Assembly (NCBI GenBank): GCA_963662405.2
Contig: CAXXKT010000001.1
Coordinates: forward strand, 2,496,001-2,560,000
DNA from: Syntrophales bacterium
GTDB taxonomy: Bacteria > Desulfobacterota > Syntrophia > Syntrophales > UBA2210
Reading direction: 5' to 3'
DNA: 64,000 nt
Of this stretch, positions 27,080 through 58,714 are shown piece by piece. Within the stretch, counting starts at the first letter, position 1; the number at the start of each line of letters is the position of its first letter. The position numbers and the translations under genes were made by a program. A model generated the notes under the pieces. The model was not told the origin of the DNA. It was given only the letters and a program-made list of their open reading frames with translations, and ran no database searches.

Positions 27080-27895
27080 TCAGTACGAGTGCTCTTCCCC
27101 CGGGAAGGCCCCGCCTTTGACATCTTCGATGTAGTGTCCGACCGCGTTTTTGATTTCCGTGCTGAGGTCTGCGTACTTTTTGACGAATTTCGGGGTGAAT
27201 CTTTCAAATGTCCCGAGCATGTCGTTGACGACGAGGACCTGGCCATCGCATTCGACCCCCGCCCCGATCCCGATGGTGGGGATCGCCAGGGCCCGGCTGA
27301 TCTCACCTGCCAGCGTTGCGGGGACGCACTCCAAAACGATGGAAAATGCACCGGCCTCTTCCAGGGCCTTGGCATCCTCCATCAGCTTGCGGGCCGCCTT
27401 GGCGTCTTTCCCCTGCACCTTGTACCCACCAAACTGGTGGACTGATTGGGGAGTCAAACCGAGGTGTCCCACCAGGGGGATCCCCGCGGCGGTGATCTTC
27501 CCGACGGCCTCCGCCACCTCTCGTCCCCCTTCCAATTTGACGCCGTGGGCGCCGGTCTCTTTCATGAGCCGCCCCGCGTTTCTCACCGCCTCCTCGACAG
27601 AGACCTGGTATGACAGGAAAGGCATGTCGGCGATCACCATCGCACGCTGTGCCGCACGAACGACGGTCTGTGTGTGGTGGATCATATCCTCCATCGTGAC
27701 CGGAAGCGTGCTGTCGTACCCCAGGACGACCATCCCGAGCGAGTCTCCTACCAGGATCATGTCCACCCCTGCTGCGTCCACCAGCGCGGCGATGGAGTAG
27801 TCATACGCGGTCAGCATGGAGATTTTTTCACCCTCCCGCTTCATCTTCAATATCGCGGCCGTTGTTACCTTATTGATCTTCCCCTGTGTACTCAT
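27080..27895 (-). CDS. panB: 3-methyl-2-oxobutanoate hydroxymethyltransferase
   Basis: [28 protein letters not shown]. Confidence 0.97.
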
Positions 27896-42928: not shown

Positions 42929-43004
42929 GGGCGGGTAGCTCAGCTGGGAGAGCGCCACGTTTACACCGTGGATGTCACAGGTTCAAGTCCTGTTCCGCCT
43001 ACCA
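42929..43004 (+). tRNA. tRNA-Val(TAC)
   Basis: CCACG-TTTACAC-CGTGG anticodon arm, CCA end. Confidence 0.96.
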
Positions 43005-48201: not shown

Positions 48202-49878
48202 TCAGGCCCTCTGCCGTCGGAGCCGCCGGAACGTGATCCCGGCCAGCAGGCCCATGAAGACGATCATGCCCCATTCCGACAGGGTAGGGATGGACGCAGG
48301 CGCGGCAGGCAATTCACCCTCAAACGCCCCGATATCACAACGAGATCCCACCGGCCGGGCCACGCCGCGCTGGTCGGTGGCCAGACACGAGCCGGGGTTG
48401 GCCGCATCGATGGCCGGGCTGCCGGTGATCAGGGCACACGTGCGGGTAGGGCCTCCGTTGTCCTGCAGCGGGCCGAGATTCGGATCGGCGCCGGTAATAT
48501 TATTGGTCGTTGTTCCGGCAAAAGTGCAGCCGGTTGTGTCCTGAATGAGATTGTAGTCCTGCGAAGTCAATACGGCGGTATTGTAGGTGTAACAATCCGC
48601 GCCCCCGCCGCTGAGGTCGCTGTTTTGGGCGATGATCGTGTTCCCAACCTGAATAATAGTGCCCCAGTCTGATACAAAGAGTCCACCGCCGTTACCCGTA
48701 CCGTTGTTATCGCTGTCGGCCGTATTACCGGTGATGGTCACGTAATTCAGGGCCATGGTCCAATCACGGAAATAAATACCACCACCATCGGTAGCCGTAC
48801 TGTTCCCGGAGAAGGTGCTATTGGCTATGGAGGCCCCCTCGTTGATATGATAAAGGCCACCGCCACCGTTTCCATTGATCCCTGTTGCGGCGTTCCCGGA
48901 GAAGGTGCTGCCGGTGATGTTCAAAATGCCATTGCTGCTAATACCGCCGCCGCATCCATACTGGCCGGTGGCCTGGTTGCCGGAAAAGGTGCTGTCCGTC
49001 ACGATGAGCGTAACTATCCCGCCATCCGCACCGGTAGCAATGCCGCCGCCTTCATAGCCGCTGTTGCCGGCAAAGGTACTGCCGCTTACCGTGATCGTAC
49101 CATCACCGGCAAACAACCCGCCCCCGCCGTAGCCGTTGGCGCACGTATTGTTAGAACACGTGCTGTTAGTAATGCCAACAGTGCCGTAGGTTGCGATGCC
49201 GCCGCCGGCTGGCGAAGTACCGGTCGCCGTGTTTTGACTGAGGGCGCAATCGGTGATGGTGAGCTGGCCGCCGGTCGCATTGTAGATCCCACCGCCTCTG
49301 CCAACACCGGAAGAGTATGTTACGGTGTTGAGGGTGACGGTGTCGTTGTTCAGGATCAGCGTATCGCCGTTGTTGTGGATGCCGCCGCCATTTTCACCGG
49401 TGACGGCGCCGTTGCGAATAGTGACGTCAGAGATATTGACCGTAATACCGCCGGTTCCGGCAGGGTCAAGGTGAAAGATCCGGTCTATGCCGCCGCCGTC
49501 AATAATGGTGCTTCCCGCGCCGGCGCCGGCGATGGTCAGATCGCCGCCGGCCGCCAGGACGTCCAGATCGCCCGTTGCGTTGGCGTTTTCACCGGACCCG
49601 GCAACGGTCAGGGTATAGGTGCCGGCTGGTATGTTGATGGTATCGGCACCGGCGTTGGCATTGGCACTGTCAACCGCCCCGCGCAGGCTGCAATCGTTCG
49701 GAGCGGCCGTGCAGGCGGTGCACAACGGGTCGTCAGCGTTCGTGTCAACATCAAAAAATAAAGCGTAGACTGCTGTGGATGGGGTGGCGACATTCACCAG
49801 TACTGCCAGGAGCGCGGCAGCAACAACTGAACGAAACCGGGGAGTGAGATTGTGCCGGAGGGAAGCGCTTTGGCCCAT
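48202..49878 (-). CDS. Surface protein: CSLREA-like N-terminus, beta-helix repeats, choice-of-anchor Q-like domain, IPTL-CTERM
   Basis: Signal peptide; DCSLRGAV, FSGN/GGG repeats, LGPLQDNGGPT..DQRG..CDIGAFE, IPTLSEWG-TM-RRLRR. Confidence 0.88.
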   Translation of the reverse strand: MGQSASLRHNLTPRFRSVVAAALLAVLVNVATPSTAVYALFFDVDTNADDPLCTACTAAPNDCSLRGAVDSANANAGADTINIPAGTYTLTVAGSGENANATGDLDVLAAGGDLTIAGAGAGSTIIDGGGIDRIFHLDPAGTGGITVNISDVTIRNGAVTGENGGGIHNNGDTLILNNDTVTLNTVTYSSGVGRGGGIYNATGGQLTITDCALSQNTATGTSPAGGGIATYGTVGITNSTCSNNTCANGYGGGGLFAGDGTITVSGSTFAGNSGYEGGGIATGADGGIVTLIVTDSTFSGNQATGQYGCGGGISSNGILNITGSTFSGNAATGINGNGGGGLYHINEGASIANSTFSGNSTATDGGGIYFRDWTMALNYVTITGNTADSDNNGTGNGGGLFVSDWGTIIQVGNTIIAQNSDLSGGGADCYTYNTAVLTSQDYNLIQDTTGCTFAGTTTNNITGADPNLGPLQDNGGPTRTCALITGSPAIDAANPGSCLATDQRGVARPVGSRCDIGAFEGELPAAPASIPTLSEWGMIVFMGLLAGITFRRLRRQRA

Positions 49879-50161
49879 GCGGTATGTACCTCCTGTCAAT
49901 TATATATAATACTGAATATGTGAGATTAAGAATGTCGGTTCACTACGGGTGGTTCGGAAATAATTGATCTTTTCCCGAAAAGCAAACCTTCCGGTACGTT
50001 ACTAGGCAGCGGCTGTTAAGTCAAGAAAAACATGCCCAGGGTTGAATATTTTCTGATCCGATAGTGGGATGGGAATACCTCGGGAAATCAGGAAAACGGG
50101 GGACGCTTTCCACATTGTAGGTGGGGGAAACCGCAGTCTCCCCCATCGATGAACATGCCTG

Positions 50162-50728
50162 TTATGCCTGCACCATGGCACCGTTCCTCTTTTTTGCCTG
50201 CGCCATCACCGCGATGCCCGCGAGAGCGGCGATTACACACAGAACGATATACAAGGCGAATGCCATGTGGTAGCTCTTCGTGTAGTCATAGATCAACCCG
50301 GAGAGGGGCACGCCCACGGCGGTCCCCAGCGTCGTGAAGATGTTCAGGAAGCCGTAGATGACGGCGAAGTGCTTCTGCCCCAGGACGCGGGCGGTCATGA
50401 GCGACGGGAGGACGGTCCGGACGGCGATGGAGAAGCCGAAGAGGACGTTGAAGACAATCGCCACCCACAGGAGCTGTGAGCCGTACAGGAGGGCGATGGA
50501 GATCATCAGGCCGATCATGCAGACGAGGTAGCTCTTCAGGAGTCCCAACCGGTCGGCGTGGCCCCCCACCAGGACCTTCCCCACAATGAAGCATGGTCAT
50601 GTGCAGTGACATGAGCGTTGCCGCCAGTGTGGAGGAGAACCCTATGTCGGTGAGGTAGGGGACGATGTGGTGAAGGACACCCATGTTGGCGGTGGCGATC
50701 AGGAGGATGATGGCGGCCAAGAGCCAGG
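50162..50728 (-). pseudogene. C-terminal MFS transporter fragment with a +1 frameshift near 50589
   Basis: WLLAAII..HIVPYLTDIGFS continues in another frame as IVGKVLVGGHADRLG..LIYDYTKSY; N-terminal half absent. Confidence 0.8.
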
Positions 50729-50882: not shown

Positions 50883-53800
50883 CTATAGACTCGCAAGCCT
50901 TTTGTACCCCTCGAATCTCTCTTTCGCCTCCTCTTCGGCCATCTGATAGACCTGATCGGCCACGTCGGGGAAGAGTCGTTTCAGGCTGGAGTACCGGACC
51001 TCGCCCTTGATGAATTCCTGGAAATCTCCTTTGATATCAGTCGAATCCAGCTGGAAGGGATTTTTGCCTTCCGCCCTGAGGAGCGGATTATAGCGATAGA
51101 GCGGCCAGTATCCGGCCTCGACGGCCTTTTTCTCTTCCTCCTGGCTTTTCCCCATATCGATGCCGTGGTTGATGCAGGGCGAGTAGGCGATGATCAGGGA
51201 AGGGCCGGGATAGTTTTCGGCCTCGATTGCCGCCTTCAGGAACTGCGACTTGCTCGCCCCCATCGCCACGGACGCGACATAGACGTATCCGTACACCATG
51301 GCCATGCGGCCGAGATCTTTCTTGCGGACCGGCTTCCCCTTGGCGGCGAATTTCGCGACCGCCCCCATCTGGGTCGCCTTCGATGCCTGTCCTCCCGTGT
51401 TCGAGTAGACTTCGGTATCCAGCACCAGTATGTTGAGGTCATGATTCTCGGCAATCACATGGTCCAGTCCCCCGTATCCGATGTCATACGCCCAGCCGTC
51501 GCCGCCGATGGCCCAGATCGATTTTTTGACGATCAGATCTTTCAGCCTCAGTATGTTATTCAGCGTGTCCTTCTTCGCCCCCACCGATCGCAGGATCTCG
51601 GTTGAAAGGGCCCCTTCGATCCGGAATCTCAGATCACTGGTCACATCCGGATCGTTCATATGATCGAGCCACGATTGCAACAGGCCCTTGAGTTCCGTTG
51701 AGATATTCTGCCCGACGGCCTCTCTGATATGCATGGCCAGTTTCTCACGCCTCCCTGAAATACCCGCCTCAATACCCAGGACGAACTCCGCGTTGTCTTC
51801 GAAGAGCGAATTGGCCCACGCCGGTCCGTGTCCGTACTCGTTGACGGTATAGGGACAAATCGGTGCAGAAGCACCGTAGATGGAAGAGCAGCCCGTCGCG
51901 TTGCCGATGATCATCCGGTCGCCGAAGAGCTGCGTGATGACCTTGATGTACGGGGTCTCGCCGCAACCGGGGCAGGCACCGGAGAACTCGAAAAGGGGTT
52001 GGCGAAACTGACTCCCCTTGACCGTGTGTTTCGCCATCAGATCGTTCCTGACGGGGACGGTCAGCGAGAATTGATGATTCGGCACCTGCGCCCCGCTCTG
52101 GGTGCTCAGCCGTTTCATGACGAGCGATTTTTCTTTTGAAGGGCAGACCTCCGCGCAGCTCCCGCACCCGAGACAGTCCCGGGGACTTATCTGGATCCGG
52201 AACCGGAGGCCTTTCAGCTCCTTTCCCTTGGCTTCGAGGGTTGCGAAAGATCCCGGGGCCGTTGCCAGTTCTTCCTCCGACACCAGTACCGGCCGTATGG
52301 CGGCATGGGGACAGACAAAGGCGCACTGATTGCACTGGATGCAGTGTTCCGGGATCCACTCCGGCACGTTGATCGCGACCCCGCGTTTTTCATACTGGGA
52401 GGTCGCCGTGGGAAAGATCCCGTCGGGGGGGAGGGCGCTTACCGGGACCTGTTCCCCCCGTTGCAGGGTCATGGGGAGCATGACCGAGTTGACGAATTCG
52501 GAGACATTGTCCAGGGGGTATTCGCTGCGTTGCACCCTGGCCCATGATTCGGGCACCTCGATGACCTCGATGGACCCCAGCGCCTCATCGACGGCGCGTA
52601 TGTTCATATCGACGACCTGGTCGCCTTTCTTGCAGTATGCCTTCCGGATAGCCTCTTTCAGATATCGGATGGCATCATTGGGGGGGATCACATTTGCTAT
52701 CTTGAAGAAGGCGGCCTGCATGATCATGTTGATCCGTCTGCCCAGACCGACCTTGTCCGCGATCCTGAACGCGTCGATATTGTAGAAATGCAGATGTTTC
52801 TCCGCGATGATGTTCCGCAGACCGACGGGCAGCTCCTTCTCCATCTCCTCGACCGTCCACGGGGAGTTCAGCAGGAAGCTGCCCCCCTCGACGATCCCTT
52901 CGAGGAGATCGAACTGGGTGACATACGCCGGGACATGACAGGCGATAAAGTCGGCGTGTTTGATCAGGTAGTGCGACAGGATCCGGTTCGGGGAGAAACG
53001 GAGATGGGAGACGGTGACGCCCCCGGATTTTTTGGCGTCGTACGCGAAATAGGCCTGGGTGAACATGTCGGTCTTTTCCCCGATGATCTTGATGGCCTCC
53101 GTGTTGGCGCCGACGGTTCCGTCCGAGCCGAGCCCCCAGAATTTGCACTGGGTTGTCCCGGGGGGCGAGGCGGAGAATTCCTCCCCGACTTCGAGCGACG
53201 AGTTGCTCACGTCGTCGTTGATCCCCACCGTGAAGGATCGTTTCGGCTCCCACTGATCGAGGTTTTCGTAGACCGCCTTGACCATGGCGGGGGTAAAATC
53301 CTTGCTCCCGAGGCCGTATCGTCCGCCCACGACCAGCTGCCCGAAGCCGCCCTCGTTGATGGCGGTACTGACGTCCTGATACAGGGGCTCGCCGATGGTC
53401 AGGGGGGTCTTGATCCGGTCCAGGACCGCGATCTTCTTGACCGATCTGGGGAGGACCTTGAAGAAGTGCTCCCGGGAGAAGGGGAGGTACAGTCTGACCT
53501 TGATGAGGCCTAGACGGGCCCCTCGCTCGTTGAGATAGTTGATGGTTCCCTCGACGACGTCGCAGCTTGATCCCATGGACACGATGATCTTGTCCGCCTC
53601 GGGATGACCGACGTAATCGAAGAGATGGTAGGGCCTTCCGGTCAGCTGGCTCACCTTTCGCATCTCCTCCTCGATGATCGAGGGGAGCCGTGCGAAATAG
53701 GGGGAGCATGCCTCGCGGTTTTGAAAGTAGATGTCCGAGATCTGCGATGTGCCGCGGGCCTGCGGATGTTCGGGGTTCATCGCCTTTTCTCTGAAGCGTT

Positions 53801-54401
53801 CGATGGCGTACCAGTCGATCAGCTTGGCCATATCCGGGTAGTCGATCAGCTCGACCTTCTGAACCACCATGGAGGTTCGGAAACCGTCGAAACAGTGGAC
53901 GAAGGGGAGACTGGCCTTGATGCTCGCGAGATGAGCGACGAGACCGATATCCATGACCTCCTGGGGGGAAGCCGATGAGAGCAGGGAGAATCCGGTCTGA
54001 CGGACCGCGTTGATGTCGGAATGATCGCCGAATATGCAGAGGGCGTGGCCGGCAACGGACCGTGCCGCCACATGGAAGACCGTCGGGAGCAGTTCACCTG
54101 CTATCTTGTACATCTCGGGTATCATGAGCAGAAGGCCCTGGGATGCGGTATATGTCGTGGACAGCGCCCCTGCCGCGAGTGCCCCGTGTACGGTGGCGGC
54201 CGCACCGGCCTCGGATTGCATCTCGACGATGTCGAGTACCTGACCGAAGAGGTTCTTCCTGCCGCGGGCGGCCCATTCGCTGCAGTACTCCCCGATCGTA
54301 CTCGATGGGGTAATCGGGTATAATGCCGCGACTTCACTCATCGCATACGAGACGTACGCCGCGATCTCATTTCCTTCCAGGGTCCTGTTACATCCAGCCA
54401 T
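50883..54401 (-). CDS. nifJ: Pyruvate:ferredoxin (flavodoxin) oxidoreductase
   Basis: YPITPS, two CxxCxxCxxxCP, FSGACPGCGE, GGDGWAYDIG, NTGGQ. Confidence 0.97.
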   Translation of the reverse strand: MAGCNRTLEGNEIAAYVSYAMSEVAALYPITPSSTIGEYCSEWAARGRKNLFGQVLDIVEMQSEAGAAATVHGALAAGALSTTYTASQGLLLMIPEMYKIAGELLPTVFHVAARSVAGHALCIFGDHSDINAVRQTGFSLLSSASPQEVMDIGLVAHLASIKASLPFVHCFDGFRTSMVVQKVELIDYPDMAKLIDWYAIERFREKAMNPEHPQARGTSQISDIYFQNREACSPYFARLPSIIEEEMRKVSQLTGRPYHLFDYVGHPEADKIIVSMGSSCDVVEGTINYLNERGARLGLIKVRLYLPFSREHFFKVLPRSVKKIAVLDRIKTPLTIGEPLYQDVSTAINEGGFGQLVVGGRYGLGSKDFTPAMVKAVYENLDQWEPKRSFTVGINDDVSNSSLEVGEEFSASPPGTTQCKFWGLGSDGTVGANTEAIKIIGEKTDMFTQAYFAYDAKKSGGVTVSHLRFSPNRILSHYLIKHADFIACHVPAYVTQFDLLEGIVEGGSFLLNSPWTVEEMEKELPVGLRNIIAEKHLHFYNIDAFRIADKVGLGRRINMIMQAAFFKIANVIPPNDAIRYLKEAIRKAYCKKGDQVVDMNIRAVDEALGSIEVIEVPESWARVQRSEYPLDNVSEFVNSVMLPMTLQRGEQVPVSALPPDGIFPTATSQYEKRGVAINVPEWIPEHCIQCNQCAFVCPHAAIRPVLVSEEELATAPGSFATLEAKGKELKGLRFRIQISPRDCLGCGSCAEVCPSKEKSLVMKRLSTQSGAQVPNHQFSLTVPVRNDLMAKHTVKGSQFRQPLFEFSGACPGCGETPYIKVITQLFGDRMIIGNATGCSSIYGASAPICPYTVNEYGHGPAWANSLFEDNAEFVLGIEAGISGRREKLAMHIREAVGQNISTELKGLLQSWLDHMNDPDVTSDLRFRIEGALSTEILRSVGAKKDTLNNILRLKDLIVKKSIWAIGGDGWAYDIGYGGLDHVIAENHDLNILVLDTEVYSNTGGQASKATQMGAVAKFAAKGKPVRKKDLGRMAMVYGYVYVASVAMGASKSQFLKAAIEAENYPGPSLIIAYSPCINHGIDMGKSQEEEKKAVEAGYWPLYRYNPLLRAEGKNPFQLDSTDIKGDFQEFIKGEVRYSSLKRLFPDVADQVYQMAEEEAKERFEGYKRLASL

Positions 54402-54580
54402 TTTCTTTCTCCTTTTCGCCTCAACCGCAATCCAGTCAAGAACATCGTAGTCGTTATGTCGGTTACTTCAAAGAGCGCTCGCGCTGTTCGATCCGGTATC
54501 ATCAAGGAATCCTGTCCTGATCCCTTGCCTTTCACTTCTCATTTTTTTCTTTATCCACCCCACGGGGAGGTGTCCCAAAT

Positions 54581-54653
54581 AAAAAAGCCGCATACCCTCG
54601 TTCCGAGGTGCGGCTTCTCACAAAAAAGCCGCGGGGTTCAGGGCCCGCGGCTT
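54581..54653 (-). terminator. Two tandem intrinsic terminators in the nifJ leader
   Basis: AAGCCGCGGG-CCCTGAAC-CCCGCGGCTTTTTT (54622-54653) and AAGCCGCACCTCG-GAA-CGAGGGTATGCGGCTTTTTT (54581-54616). Confidence 0.85.
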
Positions 54654-54678
54654 GGTTTCTTCATTTAGTTTGGATGAA

Positions 54679-54765
54679 TCAAGCAGCTGACCCCATAAGT
54701 ACTACGGCGAGTACGTATACACGCTTAAGAGATACCGCTACTGCTTTTCCAAACGGACCGATCAT
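54679..54765 (-). CDS. Putative 28-aa leader peptide MIGPFGKAVAVSLKRVYVLAVVLMGSAA
   Basis: GAAGGA RBS 9 nt upstream; six GTA codons; terminator immediately downstream. Confidence 0.75.
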   Translation of the reverse strand: MIGPFGKAVAVSLKRVYVLAVVLMGSAA

Positions 54766-54796
54766 GTATCACTATCCTTCCGTGAAGTGTGGCGCG

Positions 54797-54824
54797 ATTT
54801 TACACGAAGCGAACATATTGTCAA
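54797..54824 (-). promoter_or_regulatory. Sigma70-type promoter of the nifJ leader
   Basis: TTGACA-N16-TAAAAT. Confidence 0.75.
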
Positions 54825-55103
54825 GGTAAAATGGAAACTATTATTGGTGAGTCAATCTTTGGTGCCGTATTTCAATTAGATACAAAGACTCTTCTTTCTT
54901 TGGCGTGGCCTGTCACGCCGGAGATACCTTGAGATATGGCAATTTCTTGACAAGATTGCCATCGAGAGGGTAATGACAGCGTATATTCCGTTTGATGGGC
55001 GGCAAGAGTCTCTGAACGAGACGCCCCGTGGATATCATACGCTGATCATTTCAGCCCCTCTTCCCCGGGATGAGAACCGGAGTTTCAAGGAGTCGCTTAT
55101 CGC

Positions 55104-56654
55104 ATGCAAAGACGTAAGATATTATGGGTAATCGTCATCGTATCGGCTTTGTTCTTTTTCCTTTCAGGGACGGCGTTTGCACAGGAAAAAATGATACACC
55201 GGCACGATCTCCTCGCTCAGGCCAAGGATAAGGGGAAGGTACGGGTTATTGTCACCTTCGGGGTCGCCGGTTTGGAGACGAAGCAGCGGGCATCGCGTCT
55301 GTCACGTGTTCACCCCCCGGGGGCCAAACGCTCCTCTCCCGATCTCGACGCTTTGCGCAAGGCCGATGCGGACCTGGCCGAGACGATTCGGCGGTCATCT
55401 GCCGATCTCTTTGCGGGACTGCGGCTGGACGATGCGATCACGCATGTCTTTCAAACCGTGCCGCAGGCAGTGCTCGTCGTTGATTATGACGGCCTCCTGG
55501 CACTGGAGGACAGCCCCCGGGTGACGAGGGTGGTGGAGGACAGACTGACACCGGCCCCCGACCCTCCCTCGGTAAGCACGACCAGGAAACTTCATGCCGT
55601 AGAGAGCTATGGGGTAAACATCATCAATGCCCCCCAGGCCTGGGCAAGGGGGTATGACGGAGCGGGCTGGTATGTGGCCGTGCTGGATACCGGTGTCCGC
55701 ACGAGCCACGAGATGTTCGCGGGCAAGTATATCGTGGAGGCCTGCTTCAGTACCACATGGGGGACTTTTTCATCATCTCTCTGTCCCGGCGAGGTCCCGG
55801 AAGCGGAAGGTCCCGGTTCCGCCGTTCCGCCGGATCGGTTCGGCCACGGCACCCATGTCAGCGGCATTGCGGTCGGCAACCAGCCGGGCGGCGATCAGAA
55901 GGGCGTGGCGCCCGCGGCCGGTCTCATCGCTATCCAGGTCTTCAGCTATATCCCCAGTTGGGGTGATATCGGATCTTATTCTTCCGATCAAATCAAGGGG
56001 CTGGAATATGTGTACGGCCTCCGCGCCACATACCGTATCGCCTCGGCCAACATGAGCCTGGGAGACAGTGGTTCGCATAGTAGTTACTGCGATAGTGATG
56101 CACGGCGACCGGCTATTGAGAATCTGCGGGCGGCCGGTATCGCGGTGACCATTGCCGGTGGTAATGATGGATATTGCGGAGGAGTGAACGCCCCGGCGTG
56201 CGTCTCATCCGCCGTGGCGGTGGGGGCCTCGGACTCTTTCGACGATCCCTATTCCTGGAATAACTGGCATCCGGTGATGCAGGATATTTTCGCCCCGGGT
56301 GTGTCCATCTATTCGGCAGGCGCGTGGTCCGATACGTATTATAGTACACGGTCCGGCACGAGTATGGCAGCGCCTCACGTGGCCGGGGCCTGGGCCATCT
56401 TCCGCCAGGCCGCCCCGATCGCCACGGTCGACGAGATCGAGGAGGCCATGAAGATAAGCGGCGTCATCATCGAATCAGGCTGCGACACGGAGCCGTCATC
56501 CGGCCCCCGCCTCAACGTGTCAGCCACACTGGCTTATCTCCTGACGACGTTTCCTGTTCCCACCCTGTCCGGGTGGGGGATGATCATCTTTGCGGCACTC
56601 GTGGCCGGCGCGGCGATCGTATTCATGAGGAAAAAAGACGGTATGTCTGTTTGA
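55104..56654 (+). CDS. Subtilisin-family (S8) protease with IPTL-CTERM
   Basis: Signal peptide; VLDTG, HGTHVSG, GTSMAAPHVAG; VPTLSGWG-TM-RKK. Confidence 0.93.
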   Translation: MQRRKILWVIVIVSALFFFLSGTAFAQEKMIHRHDLLAQAKDKGKVRVIVTFGVAGLETKQRASRLSRVHPPGAKRSSPDLDALRKADADLAETIRRSSADLFAGLRLDDAITHVFQTVPQAVLVVDYDGLLALEDSPRVTRVVEDRLTPAPDPPSVSTTRKLHAVESYGVNIINAPQAWARGYDGAGWYVAVLDTGVRTSHEMFAGKYIVEACFSTTWGTFSSSLCPGEVPEAEGPGSAVPPDRFGHGTHVSGIAVGNQPGGDQKGVAPAAGLIAIQVFSYIPSWGDIGSYSSDQIKGLEYVYGLRATYRIASANMSLGDSGSHSSYCDSDARRPAIENLRAAGIAVTIAGGNDGYCGGVNAPACVSSAVAVGASDSFDDPYSWNNWHPVMQDIFAPGVSIYSAGAWSDTYYSTRSGTSMAAPHVAGAWAIFRQAAPIATVDEIEEAMKISGVIIESGCDTEPSSGPRLNVSATLAYLLTTFPVPTLSGWGMIIFAALVAGAAIVFMRKKDGMSV

Positions 56655-56833: not shown

Positions 56834-58714
56834 GTGTGCCCGGCATGGGCAGCAGCTTGGAGGTGAGAGTCCTCTACAGGTCCTGATGGTGGAAACTGTT
56901 AGCCGAGGGCAAGGGCGTCCATCGCGAGGTGGGGTCTGAAGGAAGCCGGAGGCAAAATCCCGATCCGAGGAACACGAATCGCATATCAGGCTGTATCATT
57001 GGGGCGAGCTTACGTGAGAAGGCGAAGCCCGTAGCCATCAAACGGTGATGCAGTAAATGCGGCGGATGCGGGGTGAAGGCGGCTGTTCTTACCCGGGGAG
57101 GTCTGGGAACCTGTCGGAGACGACAAGGGGTTTCGCAAGGGACTCTGAACGGTTTCCAGAAGTCAGCAGAGGCCGTATTAGGTGTGGCGCAAGCCGGGCT
57201 GAAGGGCCGAACGTGTGGTCGGTGGTGAGACTCAAGGATTCGTGGTCGTGGAGATGCGGCAACTTTCATTATTCGATGAAGGCCTTCTGTCATGTTTGAA
57301 GGGTGAAGCCCCGAGGAGAGATGGGAGGAGGTATCAAGCGGCGGCGGCATTGGAGAGATCCGAACCCATCATGGTTGACCTGATGCAGGAGGTAGTGAAC
57401 AGGGAGAACGTGATTCGCGCATGGAAACGAGTCAGGGCGAACAAGGGGAGCCCCGGCATTGACGGGATGACCGTCGATGAACTGACGGATTACCTGCGGG
57501 AACACTGGCCGCGGATTCGGGAGGAGTTGTTGACAGGGGAGTATCGCCCCCAACTGGTGAAAGAAGTAGTGATTCCGAAGCCGGGAGGCGGGACCAGACG
57601 GCTTGGTATCCCCACGGTGACGGATCGATTTATCCAGCAGGCAATTTTGCAGGTGCTCGATCCCCTGTATGATCCGACCTTTTCGGACTACAGTTATGGC
57701 TTTCGTCCTCGTCGCCGTGCTCATCAGGCGGTGAACCGAGCGAAGAGATGCATATCTGAAGGATACGAATGGGTGGTCGATATTGACCTGGAGAAGTTTT
57801 TTGACCGGGTGAACCATGACATCCTCATGGGGAGACTGGCCAAGAGGATCGGTGACAAGCGCATTCTCCGGGTTATTCGTCGGTATGTGCAGGCCGGGAT
57901 CATGGTCAATGGGGCCGTACAGGAAAGGTGGGAAGGGACGCCGCAGGGCGGACCCTTATCGCCGCTGCTGGGCAACATTCTTCTGGACGCACTGGACAAG
58001 GAGTTGGAACGGAGGGGTCACCGATTCTGCCGGTATGCGGACGATGTGAACATCTATGTCAAGTCTCAGCGCGCCGGGAAGAGGGTGTTTGAATCCATTG
58101 AGGCATTTTTGCTCAAGCGGTTGAAGCTTCGGGTGAACCGGGACAAGAGTGCGGTAGCCCGATACCATGAGCGGGGATTCTTAGGATTCGGCTTTACCTC
58201 CGGGAAACTCCTCAAGATCAAGCTGACGGGCAAGGCCCTGAGGAACTTCCGGGACCGAGTCCGGGCGATCACGAGGCGATCTCGGCGCGTCTCCATCAAC
58301 CGGATAATCGAGGAACTCCAGACGTATTTGAGAGGATGGATCGGGTATTTTCATCTGATCGAGACGTGGACGATTCTGCGGGATCTGGATAGTTGGATGC
58401 GCAGGAGGTTGCGGTGTTTCATGGTCAAACAATGGGTAAACAACTGCCATACCCGTTATAAGAACCTGATCCATCTGGGAGTAGGGAAAGATCAGGCGCG
58501 TATCGCGGCAGGGTCAAGCAAAGGACCTTGGGCGTTGTCCAACATGAAACCGCTGAAGATTGCTTTGTCCAATCGGTTTTTTGCCGAACGGGGTTTTCTT
58601 GGACTCTGGGGTCAGGCTCAAACATTGGGCAAGACTACATGAACCGCCGTGTACGGACCCGTATGCCCGGTGGTGTGGGAGGGCGAAGGCCGTGAGGCCT
58701 TCCCCTATCCCGAT
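56834..58714 (+). mobile_element. Group II intron, bacterial class C (IIC)
   Basis: 5' end GTGTGCCCGGCATGG; domain V GAACCGCCGTGTACGGACCCGTATGCCCGGTGGTGT; domain VI ending CTATCCCGAT; inserted after a hairpin. Confidence 0.92.
57254..58642 (+). CDS. ltrA: Group II intron reverse transcriptase/maturase, no endonuclease domain (start uncertain)
   Basis: NKGSPGIDG, RLGIPTVTDR, GTPQGGPLSP, RYADD, RGWIGYF. Confidence 0.95.
   Translation: MRQLSLFDEGLLSCLKGEAPRRDGRRYQAAAALERSEPIMVDLMQEVVNRENVIRAWKRVRANKGSPGIDGMTVDELTDYLREHWPRIREELLTGEYRPQLVKEVVIPKPGGGTRRLGIPTVTDRFIQQAILQVLDPLYDPTFSDYSYGFRPRRRAHQAVNRAKRCISEGYEWVVDIDLEKFFDRVNHDILMGRLAKRIGDKRILRVIRRYVQAGIMVNGAVQERWEGTPQGGPLSPLLGNILLDALDKELERRGHRFCRYADDVNIYVKSQRAGKRVFESIEAFLLKRLKLRVNRDKSAVARYHERGFLGFGFTSGKLLKIKLTGKALRNFRDRVRAITRRSRRVSINRIIEELQTYLRGWIGYFHLIETWTILRDLDSWMRRRLRCFMVKQWVNNCHTRYKNLIHLGVGKDQARIAAGSSKGPWALSNMKPLKIALSNRFFAERGFLGLWGQAQTLGKTT

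Follow-up and report, generated by a model that had tools for sequence, protein, structure and literature searches.

The window analysed here is a stretch of 64,000 nucleotides from the genome of a Syntrophales bacterium (G000). Its minus strand carries nifJ (50883-54401), which encodes a homodimeric pyruvate:ferredoxin oxidoreductase (PFOR) of 1172 aa (TIGR02176, 1784 bits with a cut-off of 911; PDB accession nos. 6cin and 1b0p). On the same strand, a promoter, a short open reading frame (ORF) and terminator hairpins occupy 54581-54824, and a poorly conserved spacer (54402-54580) containing the nifJ ribosome-binding site (RBS; 54416-54405) separates them from the gene. A GC-rich hairpin follows the nifJ stop codon. 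Behind nifJ lies a fragment of an MFS transporter in two frames and without its N-terminal half (50162-50720, minus strand), which is not conserved behind nifJ in genomes G001 or G003. The nifJ region is flanked by secreted proteins whose C-terminal tails look similar by eye, namely, an S8-type peptidase with an IPTL-CTERM match (55104-56654, plus strand) and a Gly/Thr/Asn-rich surface protein (48202-49899, minus strand). The window also contains a group II intron whose reverse-transcriptase ORF is intact (56918-58642, plus strand; Rfam D1D4 matches at 56918 and 57124).

Anatomy and folding of the leader

The sigma-70-type promoter (54797-54824; all leader coordinates refer to the minus strand) consists of a -35 box TTGACA (54824-54819) and a -10 box TAAAAT (54802-54797) separated by 16 nt, with 11 of 12 positions matching the consensus. 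A scan of 54300-55300 found one promoter-like site, the mean in shuffled sequences being 1.0; taken alone, this match is not above chance. TTGACA is found at the same position in 24 of 25 aligned leaders, and the scan found no promoter-like site in the spacer. An RBS (GAAGGA, 54775-54780) lies 9 nt ahead of the ATG of a 28-codon leader ORF (54679-54765), which possesses a Val/Leu control block (six Val codons, all GTA, and three Leu codons), five Ala codons and a conserved G[T/S]AA motif at its end. A small conserved hairpin is present within the ORF in the consensus fold (54699-54714) and is possibly a pause hairpin. Strand 2 (54679-54694), the 5' arm of an antiterminator, comprises the final five ORF codons together with the stop among them, while strand 3 (54640-54655) serves both as its 3' arm and as the 5' arm of terminator 1 (strands 3:4 and U tract, 54622-54653, -19.8 kcal/mol). 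This is followed by a conserved terminator 2 (strands 5:6 and U tract, 54581-54616, -19.6 kcal/mol). In an alternative 4:5 helix (54610-54632, -12.8 kcal/mol), the 3' arm of terminator 1, when freed, could bind terminator 2 through the 5' arm of the latter.

The initial annotation had described a promoter, RBS, leader ORF, antiterminator arms and one terminator here, and all of these are present on the minus strand where it placed them. The short ORF with its RBS lies between promoter and terminator and is conserved in homologues, it contains a run of cognate regulatory codons, an intrinsic terminator stands ahead of the structural gene, and a ribosome that has reached the end of the ORF could cover the 5' arm of a mutually exclusive antiterminator (assuming a footprint of 9 nt beyond the A site). 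It is the conservation in homologues that is decisive: it bears out the proposal of an ilv-type ribosome-mediated attenuator ahead of nifJ, and on this basis the element is judged to be a real and conserved leader-peptide attenuator of a known kind, very probably a functional one. What the initial annotation overlooked is its origin as a duplicated ilvB leader and the second terminator (54616-54581).

Codon use in G000 ORFs of at least 450 codons was used to calculate chance figures. The probability of at least six Val among 27 codons is 0.01, and that of all six being GTA, given Val, is 3e-6; GTA accounts for 12% of Val codons in these ORFs. Val makes up 48%, Leu 15% and Ala 3.9% of the twelve codons ahead of a conserved Gly in 69 distinct homologues. 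Val occupies positions -5 and -3 in 67 of these, and 291 of the 400 Val codons in the control block are GTA, while peptide length and N-terminus are free to vary. The signal, as read from these codons, would be Val first and Leu second. Alanine, which had been proposed as a third signal, drops out: besides its rarity in the control block, it is encoded at the ORF end by two codons that belong to the antiterminator arm, so that a ribosome stalled there would favour termination. Elsewhere in the window lie the one gene found in G000 for tRNA-Val(TAC), a reader of GTA (42929-43001, plus strand), and panB (approximately 27098-27871, minus strand); their sharing the window with the leader is probably a coincidence.

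Pairing between the ORF end and the 5' arm of the terminator, as had been suggested for the antiterminator, is supported by covariation. The arms 54694-54679 and 54655-54640 form 13 of 16 pairs (11 of 16 in the nifJ leader of G001). Across the alignment, 95.1% of cells in the 2:3 helix are paired, with 34-55% in slid controls, and twelve cells are changed on both sides, a count equalled by one of 500 shuffles, the related sequences not being independent. The double changes are confined to three of 14 pairs (173 of 500 shuffles as high, with the same non-independence of kin). When 20 homologues were folded to a consensus without constraints, the 2:3 helix emerged together with the small hairpin within the ORF. 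Ribosome-free pairing of the 2:3 core is 0.61-0.87 in five of six leaders and 0.33 in the nifJ leader of G001, and the helix is less stable in three of the nifJ leaders (-17.6 to -18.9 kcal/mol) than in ilvB copies (-22 to -31 kcal/mol). Folding with ribosome-covered codons, a check proposed with the initial annotation, was applied to a transcript ending before strand 4 with the footprint assumed above: core pairing is 0.74 at stalls up to Val21 and 0.63 at Leu23, so that 2:3 is kept for stalls up to Val22/Leu23, and is lost from Gly25.

The protector that had been proposed fared less well. Its AAGCAG/CTGCTT pairing occurs in a single-sequence fold and is absent from the consensus fold of 20 homologues. 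GTACT/AGTAC corresponds to the conserved local hairpin in the ORF, which does not overlap the antiterminator arm. No conserved 1:2 anti-antiterminator was found in the consensus fold, and the leader is therefore not assigned to the three-hairpin subtype (trp or Corynebacterium glutamicum ilvBNC).

Both terminators are conserved among the 25 aligned copies (98.2% of cells paired, 15 double changes, matched by none of 500 shuffles), and a pattern search located terminator 2 at 77 of 80 loci. The 4:5 helix is paired in 98.7% of cells in the ilv family, where it displays no double change and is matched by 500 of 500 shuffles. In terminator 2 the innermost counted pair varies, but there is hardly any variation in the outer stem; pairing of strand 4 with strand 5 would explain this constancy. 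A genome-wide preference for this stem was considered and rejected, the outer stem occurring in six of 97 terminator-like hairpins, five of which belong to these attenuators. The tandem design recurs in related Phe and trpE leaders, their 4:5 helix folds in all 21 cases examined, and an A-U pair stands at the place of ilv's G-C; the same Phe/trpE pattern would be expected if terminator 2 had arisen as a duplicate of terminator 1. A relay through 4:5 probably disables terminator 2. Under ample Val-tRNA, a ribosome would reach the last codons and cover strand 2, terminators 1 and 2 would form and transcription would stop. A stall at any codon up to about Val22/Leu23 would leave strand 2 free to form 2:3, and the freed strand 4 would capture strand 5, whereby both terminators would be blocked and nifJ transcribed. 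Translation of the leader and its response to amino acids are predicted from this arrangement. If real, the relay is a compact design for tight, switchable termination.

Descent from the ilvB leader and capture by nifJ

One close paralogue of the leader was identified in G000 (79% over 136 nt, E 1.6e-25), located directly before ilvB-ilvN (here ilvB1-ilvN). A covariance model built from 25 copies, which match it by construction, scored above 120 bits at 32 places, spread over 29 of 38 family genomes, two matches being present only in G000, G001 and G003; of 151 genomes sampled within the class, 126 also contained a match. When 185,579 genomes were scanned for an exact pattern, 85 stretches were obtained, with record titles mostly of Syntrophales, its families or Deltaproteobacteria. 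Among the 80 of these that were analysed, 76 lie before an ilvB-type gene, one before nifJ (the same leader as that of G001, counted once) and one before a PLP-dependent aminotransferase-like gene, the downstream gene being unplaced in two. Because 76 of 80 precede ilvB-type genes, the element is the ilvB leader of the order Syntrophales, with the nifJ copy derived from it. Searches of Rfam at gathering and E-value thresholds matched no leader, T-box or riboswitch family to the leader; the G001 copy gave a sub-threshold Thr_leader match (30.5 bits, gathering 55). The copy before the aminotransferase-like gene (L407:2046-3500, minus strand, G094:C2; also L219) contains extra Tyr codons and has A-U in place of G-C through changes to each arm of terminator 1, and is a second co-option.

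Of the 339 genomes searched in the order, 22 carry nifJ, and in three of these the leader precedes it (G000, G001 and G003), all belonging to the genus of the window. Among 80 metagenome PFOR loci, of which nine are without upstream DNA, one (L127) also possesses the leader. The nifJ copies of G000, G001 and G003 form one branch (SH-aLRT 99, quick tree). In the sisters G050 and G051, a tRNA lies directly upstream of nifJ, as it does in the more distant G011 and G019. The spacers of L127 and G003 are homologous (score 78, shuffle maximum 41), and a single gain of the leader at nifJ would be the simplest reading.

Between terminator 2 and nifJ, the L127 spacer retains the 5' UTR of ilvB and a decayed remnant of roughly 17 ilvB codons (score 80 in comparison with the ilvB region of G005, shuffle maximum 50; four of six ilvB regions beat all 200 shuffles). 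This fossil of the donor points to copying from ilvB to nifJ; the same test was not significant in the spacers of G000, G001 and G003. By eye, alignment places the GTG start of the genus's ilvB copies out of frame at 54772-54759, where a 7-nt duplication-like insert gives a new in-frame ATG at a good RBS distance.

Identity among the four nifJ leaders is 71-80%, as against 41-48% at four-fold sites of the nifJ genes behind them; selection has thus preserved the leader at the nifJ locus. Most pairs of nifJ spacers are near the shuffle level of similarity, and the G001 spacer is about 85 nt long. L127 retains 2:3 via a double change and has lost the G[T/S]AA motif. The locus shows regulatory rewiring in progress, in which a whole ilvB leader has been copied onto a gene of central metabolism, while a sister gene bears a second leader of independent origin.

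The nifJ enzyme and other leaders of the lineage

The nifJ product is a full homodimeric PFOR in which TPP, Fe-S and substrate motifs are present, and belongs to a divergent clade with a long stem (0.45). Every clade member that covers these positions retains T31, E64, R114, L121, I123, I841 and N1001, of which T31 and R114 bind pyruvate and L121, I841 and N1001 line the pocket. Changes fixed in the clade include A219S (Ser in 16 of 17 members), N221I, P222S and E179V. The PFOR of Desulfovibrio africanus (DaPFOR) is described in PMC5020499 as highly pyruvate-specific, with a narrow pocket formed by Leu121, Ala219, Ile843, Asn996 and Met1202, and a residue of StOFOR1 matched to Ala219 is described there as affecting specificity. 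Three of these five pocket residues are identical in the nifJ product, 219 is Ser and the 1202 region is absent (the Moorella chain, at 1171 aa, is of similar length).

Neither the Val leader nor the pan motif is found before 12 of the 17 nifJ-clade members, so the enzyme does not need this control and the leader appears not to be a general rule for the clade. Upstream regions across the clade are very variable, with a tRNA, a pan motif, an ilv leader or nothing. In G036, from another family, a pan motif with a terminator precedes a nifJ belonging to this clade (79% identical; L033:6752-6837, minus strand; 43 bits, gathering 36.2). This motif is close in sequence to a panB leader (L343), and the other 11 pan matches among the 151 genomes all precede pan genes. 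A 13-nt likeness, noted by eye, between the Val/Ala codons of the window and the pan hairpin of G036 was dismissed as chance, G000 having no pan match. Valine, leucine and pantoate all derive from 2-ketoisovalerate, itself formed from two pyruvates; capture of a Val/Leu leader and of a pan motif would therefore point to biosynthetic supply, although the two captures do not separate pyruvate from 2-ketoisovalerate as the product. A lack of de novo Val synthesis in nifJ genomes was rejected, as ilvC, ilvD and panB are present in all five genomes tested.

Ten POR_N-type genes were identified in G000, which also carries ilvB1N, ilvB2NCD and cimA-leuACD. A screen of this genome for a promoter, short ORF and terminator gave 12 matches, eight of them sensible leaders, among which are the iorAB and Leu-rich leaders described below. 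Plus-strand leaders (C1:784470-784640, C1:2089050-2089260, C1:2177240-2177400 and C3:185300-185460) comprise Trp leaders before a TrpB2-like gene and, with tandem terminators, before trpE, as well as an Ile-rich one before ilvB2-ilvN-ilvC-ilvD and an Ile/Leu-rich one before cimA-leuA-leuC-leuD (short Ile-rich ORFs with terminators, the cimA one identified by eye). Two further Trp leaders in a row (G000:C1:2013130-2013260 and 2014660-2014790, plus strand; L293) precede, one each, a gene for a PaaK-like acyl-CoA ligase and the adjacent iorAB, which encodes indolepyruvate:ferredoxin oxidoreductase (IOR). The iorAB Trp leader, with terminator and antiterminator, is present at all 16 family loci (L325-L340), which suggests synthesis of Trp from indoleacetate by reductive carboxylation.

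A Leu-rich leader with terminator and antiterminator (G000:C1:1294230-1294400, minus strand; L292) precedes a tetrameric porCDAB-type operon and was found in 25 of the 26 loci with enough upstream DNA, of 30 examined (L295-L324). The alpha subunit gives almost equal POR and VOR scores, and the enzyme may make the 2-oxoacid of Leu from isovaleryl-CoA. In G000 alone of 30 loci, porB of this operon is frameshifted (L292:1212, near 1291711 of G000:C1). One low-depth contig (depth 2.3, run X2) is without a base at this site, and an assembly error is possible. Replacement of a broken por operon by nifJ was dropped as an explanation, G001, G050 and G051 holding both genes and the frameshift possibly being an assembly error. 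The tetrameric POR of best pyruvate score is without a leader, and leaderless tetrameric POR occurs in G000, G003, G036 and G217.

At G000:C1:2712780-2720964 (plus strand; L294), a Phe-rich leader with tandem terminators is followed by a LIV-type ABC transporter and, in G000, also by two CoA ligases, one of them PaaK-like. The Phe leader precedes the ABC transporter in 16 of 18 weak model matches examined, the other two being trpE leaders, and is conserved across the family (L091-L105, L108 and L109). This looks like Phe-controlled uptake and activation of phenylacetate. Judged from these comparisons, amino-acid leaders on 2-oxoacid:ferredoxin oxidoreductases are a lineage-wide pattern. In rumen anaerobes, it is described in PMC7356843 that carboxylation of acetate, isobutyrate and isovalerate and the use of phenylacetate serve amino-acid synthesis.

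Interpretation and relation to known systems

The reading preferred here, with a probability of roughly 0.55, is that an attenuator responding to Val and, secondarily, Leu was copied together with its promoter from ilvB1-ilvN and controls an accessory biosynthetic nifJ with pyruvate as its product. This enzyme would supply pyruvate from acetyl-CoA, CO2 and reduced ferredoxin for the synthesis of Val, Leu, Ile and pantoate, its direction and substrate being those that we infer from sequence context. The anabolic role suggested in the initial annotation gains indirect support from the pan motif on a sister nifJ and from the Trp and Leu leaders on other oxidoreductases. Against the preferred reading, the leaderless tetrameric POR makes a second pyruvate synthase look redundant, residue 219 is Ser with 221-222 changed, and 2:3 is weaker in three nifJ copies. 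The same attenuator could instead govern an enzyme whose range has widened, or moved, to branched substrates and which forms 2-ketoisovalerate directly from isobutyryl-CoA and CO2; nifJ would then be the Val member of a salvage set that comprises a CoA ligase and IOR for Trp, a tetrameric oxidoreductase for Leu and a transporter with CoA ligases for Phe. This is the main alternative, though a doubtful one, and pyruvate is favoured as the product. Both leaders of the clade report on products of 2-ketoisovalerate, but pyruvate supply accounts for them equally well. The other leaders of G000 precede genes whose enzymes would convert a shorter acid to the cognate 2-oxoacid, and a separate POR exists, but VorB-like and other oxidoreductases are already present and no CoA ligase lies beside nifJ in the neighbourhoods examined. 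Similarly, the long stem of the clade and its fixed changes at 219 and 221-222 fit a shift in substrate, given the influence on StOFOR1 specificity ascribed in PMC5020499 to the residue matched to Ala219, but L121, I123, I841 and N1001 are unchanged, a change from Ala to Ser enlarges no pocket and DaPFOR is highly pyruvate-specific by the same account. Carboxylation of isobutyrate to Val is itself known from rumen anaerobes, as described in PMC7356843.

It is quite improbable that the leader was captured mainly as a promoter, its attenuator being a decaying or weakly tuned passenger and nifJ catabolic or general in function. The variability of upstream regions in the clade, the weaker 2:3 in three of four nifJ copies and the loss of G[T/S]AA in L127 would agree with this, but a passenger would lose its two terminators first, and in all four copies the terminators, open ORF, GTA codons and 2:3 persist despite diverged silent sites and spacers. 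Far less credible still is an autonomous unit that encodes a small hydrophobic peptide or a small RNA and ends in a double terminator, with nifJ transcribed from its own promoter. The peptide is indeed hydrophobic, both hairpins are strong terminators and the whole leader folds into the terminators at equilibrium (single-sequence fold). Such a unit would not account for GTA making up 291 of 400 control-block Val codons (12% genome-wide) or for a peptide whose length and N-terminus vary freely; moreover, the element directly precedes ilvB, nifJ or an aminotransferase gene, and the spacer, about 85 nt in G001, has no promoter-like site. A joint reading, in which Syntrophales mark 2-oxoacid:ferredoxin oxidoreductases with cognate leaders, the nifJ clade makes 2-ketoisovalerate and one stall disables two terminators, is tentative and rather unlikely as a whole. 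Isobutyryl-CoA carboxylation would, in that joint reading, explain why two lineages of the clade gained different leaders, one for Val and the other for pantothenate. Sequence alone rarely tells the direction or substrate of 2-oxoacid:ferredoxin oxidoreductases, of which uncultured syntrophs carry about ten, and an amino-acid leader before such a gene would be a readable label of biosynthetic use and of the likely amino acid.

Attenuators of ilvB were reportedly predicted in delta-proteobacteria by Vitreschak (2004) and Lopatovskaya (2010), so the ilvB copy of the leader may not be new; to our knowledge, nifJ, ior and por targets do not appear in those lists. In the full-text literature, from which subscription journals are mostly absent, no paper was found on a leader peptide or attenuator with PFOR or nifJ (supplements or RegPrecise could list such targets), or on Syntrophus with PFOR, branched-chain amino acids and attenuation. 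Among the matches listed by separate searches, no paper was on the subject of IOR with Trp attenuation, Syntrophus was not mentioned and the term "tandem terminators" was absent. It is outlined in PMC2965389, the main text of which does not contain the word pyruvate, that attenuators hop between genes, that different sensors regulate the same gene and that a rimP leader possesses tandem terminators; the nifJ leader differs from these hopping attenuators in that its donor gene has left a fossil in one copy. The pan motif, for its part, is described from pan operons (PMC2864571).

The nifJ product matches the homodimeric PFORs of D. africanus and Moorella thermoacetica (PDB accession nos. 1b0p and 6cin) over its full length and has T31, E64, R114, L121, I123, I841 and N1001 in common with them, but differs by A219S, N221I, P222S and E179V and by lacking the C-terminal extension that carries Met1202. 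Control of ilvB by alternative terminator and antiterminator hairpins is shared with the three-hairpin attenuator of Corynebacterium ilvBNC, as described in PMC11857589 and PMC10272879, whereas that model, compared by description and Rfam only, has an anti-antiterminator and one terminator (PMC11857589), unlike the nifJ leader. The ilvBN, ilvGMEDA and leu attenuators of E. coli and Salmonella, in the account of PMC1183508, likewise combine a short ORF, biased cognate codons, a terminator and an antiterminator overlapping the ORF end; in comparison with them, the nifJ leader controls a 2-oxoacid:ferredoxin oxidoreductase, has two tandem terminators and is without a conserved 1:2 protector. What appears new here is the kind of target, nifJ, and the second terminator added to an attenuator of known kind.
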